Source: Alkalispirochaeta sp.
GTDB taxonomy: Bacteria; Spirochaetota; Spirochaetia; DSM-27196; Alkalispirochaetaceae
Reading direction: 5' to 3'
Length of the DNA: 63,140 bases
NCBI GenBank assembly: GCA_965242725.1
Contig: CBDESZ010000011.1
Coordinates: 1-63,140, forward strand
Made by a program: the position numbers. Within the stretch, counting starts at the first letter, position 1, and each line of letters starts with the position of its first letter. This document shows, piece by piece, positions 42,001 through 60,000 of the stretch.

Positions 42001-45000
42001 TATAATTTGAAGTGCCAATGTGATCAGGGAGAACAGAAATGAAACTTGAAGGAATAAACCACGTCGCAATTATCGGAACGGGGATGATCGGTTCGAGCCA
42101 GGCGGCACTCTTTACGGGTAACGGGTACAAGACCACGATGTATGCGCGGAGCGACGAGAGTGCGGCACGAGGCATACAGCGATATGAAGGTTTCTTTGAT
42201 GTTCTCCTTGAAAAGGAACTCGTTTCCAAAGAAGAGGCGAAACGGTGCAGACGGTACCTGCATACGACACAGGATTACAAGGATATCGCGGACGCGGATT
42301 TCATTATTGAATGCGTTCCCGAGGATCTGGAGTTAAAGTACCGCGTCTACGGTGAAATTGAGAAACATTGTACAAACTTCAAGGCCGTGATATCCACGAC
42401 GTCCGCAAAATCGGCCGATGACCTGGCCAAAGGATTTACCCGTCACAAGGACAAGATCATGGTCGCCCACCCCTTTTATCCGCCCCACCTTATTCTATTT
42501 GTGGAAATCGTAAAGGGGACGGAAACCTCGGCCGAGGCGGTACAGTTTGCCTACGACATACTTGAATCATGCGGACGAAAACCCATCATCGCAAATAAAA
42601 GTGTCCCCGGTTTTGTTGCCAACCGGTTACAGCACGCCCTCGTACGGGAAGCGGCGTATATGGTTGATCAGGGTATCGCTTCCGCCGCGGACGTCGATAA
42701 GGCGCTGATGCACAGCTTTGCTCCGCGATATTCCGTTGTGGGACTCTTTGAACACCAGGACGCGGCCGGTCTCGACATGGTGAAGAGTATTCAGGACTAT
42801 CTCGTACCCAGCCTGTGTTCCTCCACAAAGACGCCGGATCTCATCACCGGACACGTGAAAAAGGGCGAGCTCGGAATGAAGACCGGAAAGGGAATCCACG
42901 ACTGGACGCCGGAAAAACAGAAAGCCTTTCATGAGAAAGCCGCGGCGCCGTATTTCAAGTTTTTCAACTGGGATATTCCCGCCGAATAATACCGCCTCAT
43001 CGCCGCATCAGCGTCCGGTCGTAGTACGGTTTGCCCGTGGCGTCGTACAGACCGACGCCACAGACCCGTTCACGCCGGCGTCTACCTTAATCCGGGTTTG
43101 GTACGACGTAGTCGCGGATCATTGAAACCAGCTCATCATAGCTGGCGGTGAAAGAACGCAATGTCCGTGCCGTCGCCCCGTAGGAGTCAAACTCGCGTGT
43201 CGTCATACCATCCGGCTCCCAGGCGCGCTGGAAATCGGGGAACTTCGATAGAAGTCGATCGAGAAAACGGGGCGGGACCGGTCTGTCAATCAGATCCTGT
43301 ACGGGGACGTCCGATTCATTGAACCGCACCGCCCACTTATACGGTATGGTCACAACCAGATCTCCACCGATGAACTCCGACCAGTGATAGTGGTTACGGT
43401 ACGCTGCAGCCATAAGGCGAGAGCGATATTTTCGTTCACGGAAGATTCGGTATGCCCGTTTCATCACCGCAACGCCCGCCCATTCCAGGCATTCCGGGTC
43501 CACGATGATGTCGTCTCTGGAGGCGACAACCTTCAGCCAGTCGTCTACACGCCCGACCATCACCACACAGTTGGCAGATATGTTGTCGATCGATTTCCCC
43601 TCGCGCAGGCGACGATCCAGTCCTCGTTCAACCGCCTCTGCAGCGGCGATTACCTGGGATACGCTGAACGAGACGGTGGCGGTTATACTCACCCCGTGAT
43701 AGGTCGCTTCTTCAGCGGCGGCGATCCCCGCCGCCGTCGCCGGCAGCTTGACGGTAATGTTGTCGGCCAGCCCATGGAAATGGACCGCCTGTTTCACCAT
43801 TGTGTCACTGTCGCGGAAATCACGCGGGTCCACCTGGATCGCGATGCGCCCTTTTTTACCGTTGTGGGCGTCGTAGACCGGTTTGAGCATTGCCGCTCCC
43901 CCTTGCGCAACCCGCTCAATCATTTCCCAGGCAATCGCCGTTTCCGAGGCGGTTGGCTTCTGTGCCGCCGCCTGATGAATGGGCCTGTCCCACACGTCTA
44001 TTTGCTCGCGTAATACGGCGTGCACTATCGTTGGGTTGGTCGTCGCTCCGGTCGCGCCGTGTTCCAGTGCGTACGTGAGATGGTCGGTGTTACAGGTATC
44101 GCTCCAATAGTCGGTTGCGGTGGTTTCGACCATCGTTAACAATGCGCTCTTTCCTTTTTTCATGGTTCTTTCAGCCCTTTAATATGTGGTGAACACGATC
44201 GCAGATGCCTTGCGGATCGAGTCCGAATCGCTTGATCAGTTGGTCATAGGTTGCCGAGTGAATGTACTGGTACCGACCGTCCTCTGTAGAAGTGTCGATT
44301 GTCACGATCTGACTGGAATCGAACGATCCGGTACGTCGGAGCAGCATGTGCGCAAGCTGACTGCGAATAAACCCGTTGTTTTGTTCGGCGATGACGATGA
44401 GGCCGGACCCGGCGAGGCGTTCCAGGAGAAAGTCCTCATCAAACGAGGCCATGTCTACCACCTCCGCCGAGATTCCCCGGTCGGCCAGAAGCTGTGCGGC
44501 CGCCACGATCTCATGGACGCCACGACCGCTGGAAACGAGGCACACGTCGCTTGATGAATCGCCGGAGAGGACGTCCGCGCGACCAAACTCAAATTCGTAC
44601 CCCCGTTTATGGAGTACCGCCGAGCCTGAACGCATGATACGTACGTATGTAAGGCCACGGTCACCGGCCATGATCCAGCGCATGACACCAACCAGCTGGT
44701 TGGGGCAGGAAACATCGATCATCTTCAGACCTGCGATACCCCCGAAGATGATCACATCGTCATTCCCCATATGGGTCGCGCCGTTAACCCTGGTCTCAAA
44801 GTTGGACGCCGTTGCCAGAAAGGTCAGGTCCAACCCATGGCCGTCGGAGAGCCAGCCGTCGGCGGCGGCGATTGCTTCTAGGCGTTCCTGTTGGCCGACG
44901 GCAATCCGGCGGAGCACCTTCCAGTCAAAAAACGGGCAGAATGTGCTCACCCACGCGTTATACCCCAGGGCAGCATACGCTTCGCCGACGCACATCATAT

Positions 45001-57000: not shown

Positions 57001-60000
57001 ACCCACGCTTCGCCTTCACCGGAAACGATATAAATGAGCTCTTCCCCCTCGGGATGGGAGTGAGCCGGTTGGACCGTCTCCCCGGGCATCACCCGGATCA
57101 CGCAGCTGGAAAGAAAACGCGGCTGCAACGTTTTTTCGTCGGCAATCCACCGGATGAATCGTCCGGGTATGCGTTTTTCTTCGACCTCGGACTCATGAAC
57201 AAGTTTCATTTCCGCACCTCTATTATCGATAATCGATAATTAAATGTATCATTGAGGGGACCGCCTGTCAATAAATACCGACGACGCATGACGCAGGATC
57301 CACTATTTCTTCATCGAAGCGGTCATCCGCTGATACAGGGCGTTAACGTTGTTCTCGATAACGTGGTCGAGCATGTATTCCTGTCCGATGTCGACGTTGA
57401 AGCGTTTTCCGAAATCGGCATTTGCTTTGGCGAGACATTCTTCCTTTGTCCAGCCTTTTGCCACACCCACGGCGATAGCCGTTTTCCCATTCCATGAGAA
57501 AAGCTCTCTGTACGTAGAGTTGCTCTTTACCGCACACGTCTCCATGACCGGGAATCACGATATCCGCGTCGAGACCCATTAATCGTTCCAGCGACTCAAT
57601 CCACTGACGAATGTCGGAGACGTACAACCACGTCTGGCACCCATTAAAAACGGTGTCCGACGCAAAAACGACGCGTTCTTCCGGCACATAGACTGCCAGC
57701 TCACCCGGTGTGTGTCCCGGGGTACTGAGCAGCTCAAAGGTGGTTTCACCAACCTTCAGGGTCGTATCACCGGTGATAATCGTGTCCGGTCGATTGGGGT
57801 CTTCAAAATAGGTCTTCTCGTCCGGAAAAATGGAAATACCGTCCGGATCGTCCGTAGGCATCGCTTCCTTTGCATATTCAAAAGGGTTGATTTCCGGCGA
57901 CACCGTCATGAAATTGTCGGCGGTAACCTGGTGAGCTATCACATGTTCCGCCGACTTGAAATAGTAGTTACCAAAAATATGGTCAATGTGATATTCCGTA
58001 TTAATCAGATACCGGATCGGTCCGTGCTTTTCCGCTTCTTCACGCATTTTCACTGCGTGCGTTGGTAGTTGTGGTGTATCGATCACTACCACACCGTCGC
58101 TCGTGACGACGTATCCCGGATTACATCCGCGGATTTTTGTTTCTGCAAATACATTCTTCGTTACTTGTTGCATCGTCTATACTCCTCGAAAAATCTGTTC
58201 CTATCGATAATCGATTATTATCCAGGACGTAACAATTGTCAACCTGTCGAACATCGTCTCACCGGTTCCATTACGATTCTCCGACGGCGAGTTTCTTCTT
58301 GACATTATCCACAACCGGGCTGAATATGGTTTATATCGATTATCGATTACCGATAATCAATTTACTATTGGTCTTTGGTTCAATCGTGGTTGCATTCGTA
58401 AATAGCTGAAAAAGGAGGTTTTCGGGAGGTCTAGGACGTATTCACCGCAAGAATCGAGGTCAGTTTCAGATTTATTCAGGGAGGTGTATATGAAATCAAT
58501 CAGAAAATCTATTTTGGTTGGGTTGGGTGTCCTTTTGATGACGGCCGTGGTATTTGCCGGTGGTCAGGGGGAATCAGGTGATCAGGCGGCTGGACCGATC
58601 AAAGTCGGTCACTTGACGTATCATACCGGCGCTTTTGCGGATGTAGGCCCGTGGTTTGACGGTATCACTGAAGTTACCATTCAGATGATAAACGAAGACC
58701 CTCCGCTCGGTCGACCTCTGACCGCAATTCATCAGGATATTGGTACAGTTGGTGAAGCTCAGGCTGCGCGAAAACTGGTCGAACGAGACCGTGTACAGGT
58801 CCTGCTTAACCCGGCACACGAGTACATTTCTTATCGGGACTGGATGCTCCTGTGGCAAAAAGACAATAACGGCCCCTTAATGCCCTCAGTCCACGGTGGT
58901 GGTATCCGGGGTGATATCGGCGGATCCCCTGATGAACCGATTATGCGGGGAGCCCCGATGGATTCCGGACAAGCCGTGGCAGCAGTTATCAAGGCGAAAG
59001 ACGAAGGTTCACAGCGAGTGGTCATCGTGGCGAGTGAAATCGAAGGTAGCCAGATGCAGCTTGCGGCGGCACTTCATGCCGCAGATGAGATCGGATTGAA
59101 TGTAATCGACTCATTCAGTTTTCAACCGGAGCTCGCCTCCTATAGATCAGAAGTAGCGAGAATTGCCCAGTCCAACCCCGATACGGTATTGGTTTTCAGC
59201 CAGGCGCAGGATGGCGGTACGATCGTCAAACAAGCGGCTGAATCGGGTCTCTCAGTCCTTATCATAGGGACAACCGAGTGGCTTGGTGAAGCGTTTCCCG
59301 ACACCGCGACCTATGACGCGATGGCGCAACACAAGAACGTCTGGATTTCCGGTTTCAGTTATGTTGAAGGTCCCGCGTACGATTTCTACGAACCGTATTG
59401 GACGGAATCTGAATATGCTGATCTTCAACCGGCATCCAACTCCTACAACATCCAGTACTGGGACGTCCTGACGGTCACGGCTCTGGCAATCGAGTTGGCC
59501 GGCTCCCTGGATGCCAACGATTGGGTCCCGGCGGTTCGTTCGGTCCTCAATGCCTCCTGGTCGCAAAGTCTACACCTATCCGGAAGCATTGGCGGCAATC
59601 CGGGCGGGAGAAGAGATCGATTACGATGGTCCCCACAGGGCGTATTTGAGTACGGTCCTACCGGCATGGTTTCCGGTCTCTACGGCGTTTTTTGAATGGC
59701 GCCCGGGACACGAACTGGCGGAAGTGGCGCGAGTCGACGGACAACGCGTACTCCAACTGGACCAGGGGTGTATATTAATACTCCTTCGTAACGTAATCGT
59801 CAGTTTCTATAATGACGTGCAAGGTAGCCTCCGTTGGAGGCTACCTTTTTTTGCGTCTATCCGGTGAGCAATTGTAGATGGGATGTGTGGGATGTGTGGA
59901 ATCGAATAAGACGTATTAGATACGGTATCCTTCTATAACCGTTTCCAATGAGCAGTTGGTGGCGTCATCAATCATGAAGATCTTCCCCAGACTCAGTATC

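Follow-up and report, generated by a model that had tools for sequence, protein, structure and literature searches.

Organization of the cluster and its operator

The window, a stretch of 63,140 nucleotides (positions 1-63,140 of the forward strand of contig CBDESZ010000011.1, Alkalispirochaeta sp. assembly GCA_965242725.1; genome of 4.34 Mb, 92%-complete), carries a gene cluster that starts at about 41984, runs to the window end and crosses the contig end to continue on contig C7 of the same genome as far as C7:7821, about 28.6 kb in total. All the genes named in the survey's finding lie inside 42039-58173, but these boundaries were too narrow: the C7 portion adds an MFS gene, a second Xdh-type enzyme and a PEP-barrel donor gene, and the transketolase-like and aldolase-like genes, absent from the survey, are also cluster members. 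Between 42039 and 58173, the hydroxyacyl dehydrogenase and HD hydrolase genes are on the + strand and all others on the - strand. The features in the window are:

41984..41996, operator-like palindrome (1 mismatch) that lies upstream of the gene for the hydroxyacyl dehydrogenase
42039..42989, +, 3-hydroxyacyl-CoA-dehydrogenase-fold NAD oxidoreductase
43087..44163, -, transaldolase-fold class I aldolase, FSA type
44171..46297, -, transketolase-like ThDP enzyme
46276..48552, -, xanthine-dehydrogenase-family Mo subunit
48515..48988, -, 2Fe-2S subunit
48988..49905, -, FAD subunit, lacking the 4Fe-4S insert found in 4-HBCR beta
49943..49955, operator palindrome; relatives have operator and free ATP-grasp gene here, the gene being absent in this genome
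50028..50714, +, HD-domain phosphohydrolase
50723..51481, -, GntR/FCD regulator
51596..53290, -, His-swivel/substrate-binding subunit of a two-component small-molecule dikinase
53314..53326, operator palindrome
53772..54677, -, 301-aa PEPCK/HPrK-fold P-loop protein, the cluster marker
54692..55906, -, Zn alcohol dehydrogenase
55765..56811, -, SMP-30/gluconolactonase-fold hydrolase
56811..57209, -, cupin
57225..57237, operator palindrome
57309..58173, -, metallo-beta-lactamase-fold hydrolase, frameshift near 3' end in the assembly
58203..58354, three operator palindromes (two exact, one near-exact) separating the divergently oriented genes for the hydrolase and the binding protein
58484..59774, +, periplasmic binding protein of branched-chain type, with a frameshift close to its 3' end
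59916..63140, -, genes of a branched-chain-type ABC transporter, interrupted by several frameshifts; the last of them begins on contig C7

The 13-bp palindrome has seven exact copies in the 4.34 Mb genome (0.4 expected), all seven within the cluster; in the window, 7 copies compare with 0.2 expected by shuffling. It precedes the PEP-barrel gene in all six loci with matched upstream DNA (L057, L066, L067/L076, L068/L077, L182 and L143, the last with a VadK-type gene). The GntR/FCD regulator is the presumed binder. The Thermomicrobium locus has dikinase, Xdh and operator, but the PEPCK-fold gene was not found there.

Neighboring genes of the 301-aa protein were counted in genomes, at 53 of 53 loci; gene slots were compared in 74 longer homologous loci, and the residue counts for the 301-aa protein and some family counts refer to 133 loci or sequences. 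Neighbors in the 53 loci are the His/substrate subunit (41), Mo subunit (40), a free ATP-grasp gene (38), GntR regulator (35), lactamase-fold hydrolase (34), alcohol dehydrogenase (30), lactonase (28) and hydroxyacyl dehydrogenase (24), each number within 2 of the survey's own, and such co-occurrence counts overstate independence because the loci share descent. Across the 74 long loci, the oxidase, hydrolase and reductase slots exchange between unrelated families: Xdh (46) and W-AOR (13) occur together once, whereas the lactamase-fold hydrolase (41) and a cyclase-family amidohydrolase (9), like the hydroxyacyl dehydrogenase (24) and an alternative SDR (30), never do. The Zn alcohol dehydrogenase is present in 34/34 long loci with the lactonase, and the lactamase-fold hydrolase keeps N-T-E-x-H-x-D-H in 46/46.

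A probable two-component dikinase and its proposed phosphate donor

The likeness of the His/substrate subunit to RPH, proposed by the survey, was confirmed by matches to 5fbs and 5hv1 (E 1e-24). H522 is invariant (57/57), and the subunit carries the T/S-x-x-G-G-x-x-x-H swivel motif given for two-component small-molecule dikinases in the sections of PMC12167813 on these enzymes. In the same sections, PpsAB, CreHI and HpeHI/AcvAB have the same substrate-binding and His-swivel subunit with a phospho-His, and PpsAB/CreHI/HpeHI-type routes proceed by aryl-OH phosphorylation, then chemistry, then dephosphorylation (PMC12167813). The subunit studied here is only 25-27% identical to these proteins and falls in a clade separate from PpsA/CreH-like proteins, and the cluster differs in having no UbiD carboxylase, P450 or biotin carboxylase, and a PEP-barrel donor in place of a free ATP-grasp subunit. 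The UbiD-type carboxylase and CBS protein of the phenylphosphate synthase/carboxylase route were found neither in the window nor among recurrent families; both are present in reference locus L160.

The survey had found no such cluster in papers. For the pairing of dikinase and Xdh, the 3hpd locus of Ensifer adhaerens HP1 is a published analogue. There, orf9 and orf10 are genetically required for Xdh-type hydroxylation of 3-hydroxypyridine, and that paper leaves open why rings are phosphorylated ahead of Mo hydroxylation (bioRxiv 10.1101/2020.01.08.898148). Like HpdA1-4 with orf9/orf10, the cluster has a split PEP-synthase-type pair adjoining an Xdh-family Mo hydroxylase, a GntR regulator and an ABC transporter; unlike the cluster, 3hpd includes an SRPBCC subunit and feeds an aerobic lower path through maleamate that uses a dioxygenase, and the parts of the paper describing the locus report no PEPCK-fold protein. 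A separate SRPBCC subunit and maleamate genes were found neither in the window nor among recurrent families. The cluster would work like the Cre, Hpe and 3hpd 'phosphorylate first' routes, minus the oxygenases.

In the literature covered, all characterized two-component dikinases have ATP as donor. The separate ATP-grasp subunit, present in 88 of 133 other loci, was not found in this 92%-complete genome, whose PF01326 proteins are only 903 and 998 aa. The survey's caveat that the cluster may be incomplete is largely answered, because C7 carries a PEP-barrel donor gene: a PPDK fragment composed of a His swivel, a PEP barrel and a conserved His-bearing helical C-terminal domain, with swivel and barrel motifs intact and the ATP-grasp missing. 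For want of an ATP-grasp it was rejected as an ordinary pyruvate phosphate dikinase; a normal 903-aa PPDK sits on C9. Of 41 related genomes, 4 have the PEP-barrel gene, and the same 4 have the His/substrate subunit. Genomes G000, G001, G002 and G410 all have the PEP-barrel gene (64-78% identity), and the free ATP-grasp gene was found in none of these four, of which G410 is a single-contig genome. Both donor types occur in G006 and G813, and neither accompanies the His subunit in G007. In this genome the ATP-grasp subunit looks replaced by the PEP-barrel donor, not lost.

In L143 and L148 the helical C-terminal domain forms one chain with an ATP-grasp+His dikinase, and two plasmid records place it between a dikinase of this kind and a PEP-utilizing gene. 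Its His-bearing bundle resembles many four-helix bundles, the best Z of 12.9 being noise level for helical folds, and it includes a winged-helix MarR-like part (Z ~11). This domain may correspond to Rv1126c, the operon partner of VadK. VadK itself (Rv1127c) is a PPDK fragment with ATP-grasp and His domain, reported in the account of its function as a regulatory kinase (PMC13400623). The C7 donor is the complementary fragment (His and PEP barrel), and fragments of VadK architecture were found with this helical domain, either as a fusion or as neighbors; if the domain serves as adaptor in a PEP-driven relay, as tentatively proposed below, it could also account for the way in which VadK-type PPDK fragments find their targets.

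A second kinase family can take the place of the dikinase. UPF0261 genes keep the DTK, FH and HN motifs of the aromatic kinase MarK in 21/133 loci and match 9mpy at E 2e-57; in its host, MarK is described as serving acetovanillone carboxylation (PMC12624787). No MarK/UPF0261 kinase was found in this genome, and in the four tested genomes without dikinase the locus includes a MarK-like kinase. Counting split dikinases and MarK-like genes together, 72/74 long loci have a kinase gene of a family known to act on aryl-OH groups, supporting the survey's view that a phenolic or enolic OH is phosphorylated in an anaerobic catabolic route.

A 301-aa protein of PEPCK/HPrK fold

The model of the 301-aa protein (pLDDT 91) bears out the PEPCK fold claimed by the survey, the top Foldseek matches being PEPCK (E 1e-7, TMq 0.42-0.49). 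By VIA, PEPCK (Z 11.1, 254 aligned, rmsd 5.0) and the HPr kinase catalytic domain (Z 10.3, 128 aligned, rmsd 3.5) tie by Z. The earlier statement of no family match was slightly overstated: Pfam PEPCK_ATP (PF01293) matches at E 0.006, but with 15.8 bits against a gathering score of 26.5, and no HPrK family model matched at E 0.01. The protein has in common with ATP-dependent PEP carboxykinase and HPr kinase/phosphorylase the fold, P-loop, Mn-site His and Lys and acidic kinase-2 position, and differs from both in its P-loop (G-G-E-x-N-H-G-K) and in T-E in place of D-D. It is shorter than PEPCK (301 aa vs 540) and its alignment to the E. coli enzyme covers only residues 105-435. H105 (PEPCK H232), E145 (D269) and K127 (K254) are invariant (133/133) and K86 (K213) is kept in 119/133, matching the Mn ligands K213/H232/D269 with Glu in place of Asp.

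PEPCK residues R65, Y207 and K212, verified in the E. coli sequence, presumably form the carboxylate/CO2 site. The R65 segment has no counterpart because the alignment begins at PEPCK 105, the Y207 position is variable (E/F/A/Y/S), and K212 is N/Q in 133/133. Since the carboxylate site is not kept, this residue map suggests that phosphotransfer is likelier than (de)carboxylation, and gives no support to the (de)carboxylation proposed by the survey.

Doubtful on these grounds is an aryl/enol-phosphate carboxykinase, which would carboxylate the phosphorylated ring with ATP recovery, or decarboxylate an ortho-hydroxy acid (e.g. the B6 catabolite HMPDC) while phosphorylating. It draws on best fold and profile matches to PEPCK over the whole chain, on the invariant residues above and on invariant Y37 and R173 with near-invariant R38 and R167, which could rebuild an anion site. 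For a B6 substrate, the top PDB match of the hydroxyacyl dehydrogenase is 4om8, the B6-pathway FHMPC dehydrogenase, and is marginal only; this identity was rejected (177 bits, level with another family, where the cut-off is 500), as was that of 4-pyridoxolactonase (32 vs 325). No orthologs of FHMPC dehydrogenase, 4-pyridoxolactonase or pyridoxal 4-dehydrogenase of vitamin B6 degradation pathway I were found, the alternative SDR best matches KduD/gluconate 5-dehydrogenases, and no aminotransferase or UbiD family was found among recurrent annotated families.

Proposed pathway and alternative readings

Our main reading, at a probability of roughly 0.55, is that the genes form a regulon under GntR control whose products degrade a small hydroxy-(hetero)aromatic ring without the use of oxygen. 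After ABC/MFS import, the ring OH would be phosphorylated by the His/substrate subunit, following the known chemistry of its family, with phosphate supplied by the free ATP-grasp subunit in most genomes and here probably by PEP, via the C7 PPDK fragment and its His-bearing helical domain. The Xdh-type Mo enzyme (W-AOR elsewhere) would then oxidize an aldehyde-equivalent ring C-H. The PEPCK-fold protein could next transfer phosphate from an enol phosphate to ADP, as in the phosphotransfer half-reaction of PEPCK, its likeliest role, to which we give somewhat less than even odds; a decarboxylating kinase is a doubtful alternative, a second kinase a weak one and a protein kinase/phosphorylase improbable. 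Dedicated phosphohydrolases in 40/74 loci weaken the need for this protein as dephosphorylase. HD/PHP enzymes may act as back-up or clean-up phosphatases; in other loci, PHP, metallophosphoesterase or RNase Z-like genes occupy the HD slot. An HD gene is present in the Cre-type locus L159 as well.

A lactonase or amidohydrolase would open the ring and an NAD enzyme adjust the redox state, and a six-carbon acid of 5-keto-2-deoxy-hexonate type, the product to which the lower-pathway genes point, could be split by the aldolase into C3 and malonate semialdehyde or by the ThDP enzyme into C2 and malic semialdehyde, then malate. The myo-inositol lower pathway contains 5-keto-2-deoxygluconate aldolase and malonate-semialdehyde dehydrogenase, and the same pairing of aldolase and semialdehyde dehydrogenase occurs in 8/74 loci (2.6 expected); paralogs of both (59% for the aldolase) adjoin IolD in this genome's inositol cluster. 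Unlike that pathway, the cluster has no iol upper-path genes among its recurrent families and its aldolase is FSA-type class I. The aldolase retains the Schiff-base Lys and has Q at TalB E96 and M at F178 (13/13), residues we take to have roles in transaldolase; transaldolase was rejected on their replacement. The transketolase-like enzyme keeps the ThDP residues and H100/H473, favoring a hydroxymethyl ketone, has lost the phosphate site R358/H461 and has N for D469 (9/9), a pattern that may fit the proposed intermediate only in part. E1 and archaeal-type GAPDH occur together in 4 of 74 loci (0.7 expected). MMSDH, malate racemase and fumarate hydratase are above NCBIfam cut-offs, each in single loci, and malic enzyme is below; malate-branch genes are rare (malic enzyme 2, racemase 2 of 133 loci), and many loci have no lower-path gene.

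A sugar-acid/cyclitol-type pathway without an aromatic ring would comprise aldose dehydrogenase, lactonase, keto-reductase, kinase (the PEPCK-fold protein), aldolase and transketolase, the Mo/W enzyme being a plain aldehyde oxidoreductase. The constant pairing of lactonase and alcohol dehydrogenase, the KduD-like SDR, the aldolase paralog in the inositol cluster and the interchange of Xdh and W-AOR are consistent with it, but two unrelated aryl-OH kinase families share one slot, cyclase-family amidohydrolases replace the lactamase-fold enzyme and the transketolase phosphate site is lost, and we consider it improbable. Least probable is a reductive route, in which phosphate is a leaving group and a 4-HBCR-like Mo enzyme strips the ring oxygen, or a regulatory phosphorelay of PEP-barrel and PEPCK-fold proteins that does not feed the kinase: the Mo subunit, below all NCBIfam cut-offs, matches 4-hydroxybenzoyl-CoA reductase alpha better than any other solved structure, with a margin of 19 orders of magnitude, and the MarR-like part and VadK precedent would suit a phosphorelay, but that reductase identity was rejected (405 vs 995 and 99 vs 405 bits), the 38 FAD subunits listed lack the 4Fe-4S insert, W-AOR takes the place of Xdh, and in 4 genomes the donor gene stands in for the ATP-grasp gene, whose operator it shares.

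Under the main reading of ring breakdown, a 3-hydroxy-4-pyrone/pyridone (maltol type) and a 3-hydroxypyridine/vitamin B6 type are equally tentative candidate substrates, a polyhydroxybenzene is improbable, and some other compound is a somewhat doubtful choice. Equally tentatively, we propose an undescribed anaerobic pathway for a common 3-hydroxy-heteroaromatic (maltol/pyridone or B6 catabolites), found in gut Clostridia, in spirochaetes of sediments and on archaea-like contigs, which would rely on two new phosphotransfer devices: a His relay driven by PEP, running from the PEP barrel over the swivel His and the His-bearing helical adaptor to the dikinase His subunit, would phosphorylate the ring, and a miniature PEPCK would recover the phosphate as ATP. 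Should a dietary pyrone or B6 catabolite prove to be the substrate, this would be a route for its degradation in gut and sediment, and our literature search found no genes in print for such a route. The PEP-fed dikinase, the uncharacterized PEPCK-derived enzyme family and the defined operator make the proposal directly testable, the operator being usable as a reporter for identifying the inducer, and cultured, named carriers include Oscillibacter valericigenes (L036), Faecalicatena fissicatena (L016) and Thermomicrobium roseum (L054).

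Gene content, extent and regulation of the cluster

The catabolic cluster runs along the minus strand from 58173 downward, where a lactamase-fold hydrolase, a cupin, a lactonase, a Zn alcohol dehydrogenase, the 301-aa protein, a PEP-utilizer His subunit and a GntR regulator are followed by the FAD, FeS and Mo subunits of an Xdh-type enzyme and then by transketolase-like and transaldolase-like genes; within it, the plus strand encodes an HD protein and a hydroxyacyl dehydrogenase. The survey's finding had delimited a unit at 42039..58173; its genes stand, and its neighbor counts for 53 genome loci of the 301-aa protein agree with our recount to within 2, but the unit is larger and continues onto another contig of the genome, C7. 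Over 365 bp the end of the window contig matches the start of C7 at 98%, with 7 gaps, and a homologous locus (L001) is collinear across the join. C7:1-7738 adds the genes of an MFS transporter and of a second Xdh-type enzyme, as well as a PPDK fragment of 779 aa.

Window 51596..53290, minus strand: His-swivel/substrate-binding subunit of a two-component dikinase
Window 53772..54677, minus strand: 301-aa PEPCK/HPrK-fold P-loop protein
C7:477-5343 (L057): MFS transporter and second Xdh-type enzyme, 54% to the window Mo subunit, with one frameshift
C7:5399-7738 (L057), minus strand: 779-aa PPDK fragment with His swivel, PEP barrel, winged helix and four-helix bundle

Many single frameshifts fall in window 57300-63140 and C7:1-3950; the same genes are intact in L001, and these frameshifts are probably assembly errors rather than signs of decay.

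Seven copies of the palindrome ATCGATWATCGAT are present in the 4.34 Mb genome (0.4 expected), 5 in the window and 2 on C7, where one of them stands 83 bp ahead of the PPDK fragment. With at most one mismatch the window holds 7 sites, against 0.2 in shuffles, and the palindrome is found again in many homologous loci, a Thermomicrobium plasmid locus included. The enlarged unit is one regulon, and the GntR protein would be the binder of this operator.

The 301-aa protein is scarce, with 3/401 genomes in its own phylum (and 4/401 for the His subunit in the phylum of another genome, G004); a plasmid search gave no match to it. Its family is tight, 2492 proteins having just 191 representatives at 50% identity, mostly fragments. 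Adding 80 of 177 metagenome loci to the genome loci gave 133 loci, 74 of them at least 12 kb long. A C_GCAxxG_C_C protein (36/133 loci) and a DUF1097 membrane protein (20/133) recur beside the cluster; PHP (YcdX-like) and DUF1097 (YcdZ-like) genes occur together in cluster loci, presumably as in the E. coli operon. At the left end of the cluster (window 39982-41911) lie a DNA alkylation repair gene (PF08713) and an ORF that gives the impression of an HU-like DNA-binding protein. Two lower-GC ORFs of 310 and 419 aa (window 37254-39664) are unrelated to the cluster, the N-terminus of the longer one being vaguely reminiscent of a restriction-endonuclease fold.

Proposed phosphorylation of the substrate and probable source of the phosphate

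A dikinase or UPF0261 protein is encoded by 72 of the 74 loci that reach 12 kb; a Mo/W oxidoreductase, a hydrolase and an NAD oxidoreductase are encoded by 65 each, and a phosphohydrolase by 40. These data support a pathway substrate that carries an aryl or enol hydroxyl. UPF0261 is the family of the aryl kinase MarK (PMC12624787). UPF0261 proteins of the cluster loci align with 9mpy at E 2e-57 and have the MarK motifs; four of five genomes tested lack the His subunit, and UPF0261 is present in all 4 of their loci. The His subunit shares 25-27% identity with PpsA and with Cre- and Hpe-type proteins (the latter labels coming from gene context), and forms its own clade (22/22, FastTree support 0.93) among 29 hand-picked sequences.

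Ring catabolism that phosphorylates first is already known from Pps, Cre, Hpe/Acv, MarK and 3hpd. The HpeHI mechanism is described in PMC12167813. The closest published logic is that of Ensifer 3hpd (bioRxiv 10.1101/2020.01.08.898148), in which Xdh-type hydroxylation of 3-hydroxypyridine depends on orf9 and orf10, whose role that paper leaves open. The survey's paper searches had found no such cluster, and ours on B6, hydroxypyridine, maltol and pyridone breakdown bear this out, though Ensifer tables or supplements may list overlapping homologs. The literature searched, which mostly excluded subscription papers, described neither an oxygenase-free version nor the mini-PEPCK family nor a two-component dikinase with a PEP-fed donor. 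A riboflavin paper (PMC13492142) deals with another cluster.

The usual partner of the His subunit is a free ATP-grasp subunit, which the survey had not found in this genome. By tblastn we likewise found no free gene, and PF01326 retrieved only proteins of 903 and 998 aa; nor was a free gene found in the related genomes G001, G002 and G410, the last a single contig. The 998-aa protein (C25:297071-298177) is distinct from classic PPDK, and each of the other four genomes searched with PF01326 has long proteins like it. This genome, G001, G002 and G410 all have the PPDK fragment (64-78% identity), whose swivel and PEP-barrel motifs are intact and whose ATP-grasp domain is absent. In the model of its C-terminal domain (pLDDT 94) a winged helix is joined to a four-helix bundle; the domain has invariant His residues, the bundle bearing an invariant S-[YF]-H-x-x-W-x-E-L-H-E. 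The bundle family comprises 521 proteins, mostly annotated 'MarR', adjoining PPDK fragments.

A model consistent with this arrangement is that the helical domain would act as an adaptor letting a PPDK-type donor charge the His/substrate subunit. Of 41 related genomes, 4 encode the domain, and those 4 alone encode the His subunit; they belong to one genus and are not independent. In L004 and similar relatives a free ATP-grasp gene with the operator ahead of it sits between HD and FAD; the same spot in the window has the operator and no ATP-grasp gene, while just 11/88 free ATP-grasp genes have an operator within 250 bp, many being operon-internal. In L143 and L148, both without a free ATP-grasp gene, the adaptor domain forms a fusion with an ATP-grasp+His dikinase; as such fusions, these are ruled out as carriers of the PEP-barrel donor. 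On two plasmids (L165, M. branderi; L166, Diaphorobacter) the adaptor lies between a dikinase like VadK, a PPDK fragment with ATP-grasp and His domains, and a PEP-utilizing gene, as a three-gene set, and on an R. opacus plasmid (L167) it forms one chain with another PEP-utilizing protein. The adaptor's hypothetical neighbors in L166 and L165, of 304 and 338 aa, are not PEPCK-like. Against replacement of the donor, two genomes (G006 and G813) hold both donor types and one (G007) neither, and the fold search of the helical domain returned generic winged-helix and four-helix matches only, with Atlas leads all under 0.9. Predicting a complex of His subunit and helical domain gave a score of 0.00, which, in a run without controls, counts neither for nor against the pairing.

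The 301-aa protein

The survey had assigned a PEPCK fold. In our model (pLDDT 91) PEPCK matches over twice the length, which upholds the assignment, whereas by Z score HPr kinase ties with it. Profile matches in the PDB are, as before, PEPCK without exception (E 0.04-1.4), and Atlas clusters are unnamed, PEPCK-named or HPrK-named. Against E. coli PEPCK the protein covers residues 105-435 in a weak global alignment, with a local probability of 41-51%. The equivalents of PEPCK H232, K254 and the acid at D269 are invariant in 133/133 family members and K213 is kept in 119, while the R65 segment is missing, Y207 varies and K212 is N or Q. Judged by these residues, the protein keeps the metal and phosphoryl-transfer core, not the carboxylate site.

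We favor, at a probability of about 0.4, a protein that moves phosphate from an enol-phosphate intermediate to ADP. A decarboxylating kinase, close to the (de)carboxylation first proposed, would agree with the PEPCK matches and is disfavored by the lost carboxylate-site residues; we consider it doubtful. A second kinase appears somewhat less probable again, and a protein kinase is the least probable. The 301-aa gene is absent by tblastn from a related Thermomicrobium locus, so the dikinase-Xdh core can exist without this protein.

Interchangeable enzymes and a putative lower pathway

Several steps seem to be filled by alternative enzymes. Across the 74 loci, hydroxyacyl dehydrogenase (24) and SDR (30) never co-occur, nor do lactamase-fold (41) and cyclase (9) hydrolases, and Xdh (46) and W-AOR (13) meet once. 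One short locus outside this count, L146, pairs an SDR with a divergent hydroxyacyl dehydrogenase. In G410 and four genomes with the SDR, no hydroxyacyl-dehydrogenase match exceeds 36%. Lactonase and alcohol dehydrogenase form a second module (34/34). The best solved match of the Mo subunit is 4-HBCR alpha, and the FAD subunits lack the 4Fe-4S insert of 4-HBCR, making oxidation likelier than reductive dehydroxylation.

The aldolase is FSA-type, with Q replacing TalB E96 in 13/13, and in the transketolase-like enzyme part of the phosphate site is gone (9/9). The aldolase accompanies malonate/methylmalonate-semialdehyde or acylating dehydrogenases in 8/74 loci (2.6 expected), and E1/E2 an archaeal-type GAPDH in 4/74 (0.7 expected). 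Individual loci also hold PGK, malic enzyme, fumarate hydratase and a malate racemase over its cut-off. Both branches might cut a 5-keto-2-deoxy-hexonate, aldol cleavage yielding malonate semialdehyde and ThDP cleavage malic semialdehyde. On chemical grounds this common product could arise from a 3-hydroxy-4-pyrone or pyridone by C6 oxidation, hydrolysis and 3-keto reduction, or from a 2-methyl-3-hydroxypyridine core by C6 oxidation, hydrolysis and hydration; most loci do not have the supporting genes. Orthology to the vitamin B6 pathway was rejected, scores falling below the family cut-offs. The top match of the hydroxyacyl dehydrogenase to FHMPC dehydrogenase is marginal, and two plasmid matches of the former are not B6 clusters.

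Related lower-pathway genes lie in an inositol cluster elsewhere in the genome.

C31:97000-115700 (L192): inositol cluster, with IolD above its cut-off and IolG- and IolB-like proteins below theirs

Beside IolD are a 59% paralog of the cluster aldolase, of the FSA/TAL family, and two acylating aldehyde dehydrogenases, 47-51% paralogs of the cluster enzyme, with a split transketolase and a CoA transferase; this locus has no operator palindrome. A possible substrate for oxidation by the archaeal-type GAPDH is malic semialdehyde, the carboxylate mimic of glyceraldehyde 3-phosphate. This GAPDH is encoded in or beside the cluster, in some cases with a PGK paralog, at L024, L040, L083, L095, L101, L126, L131 and L173, bacterial loci among them.
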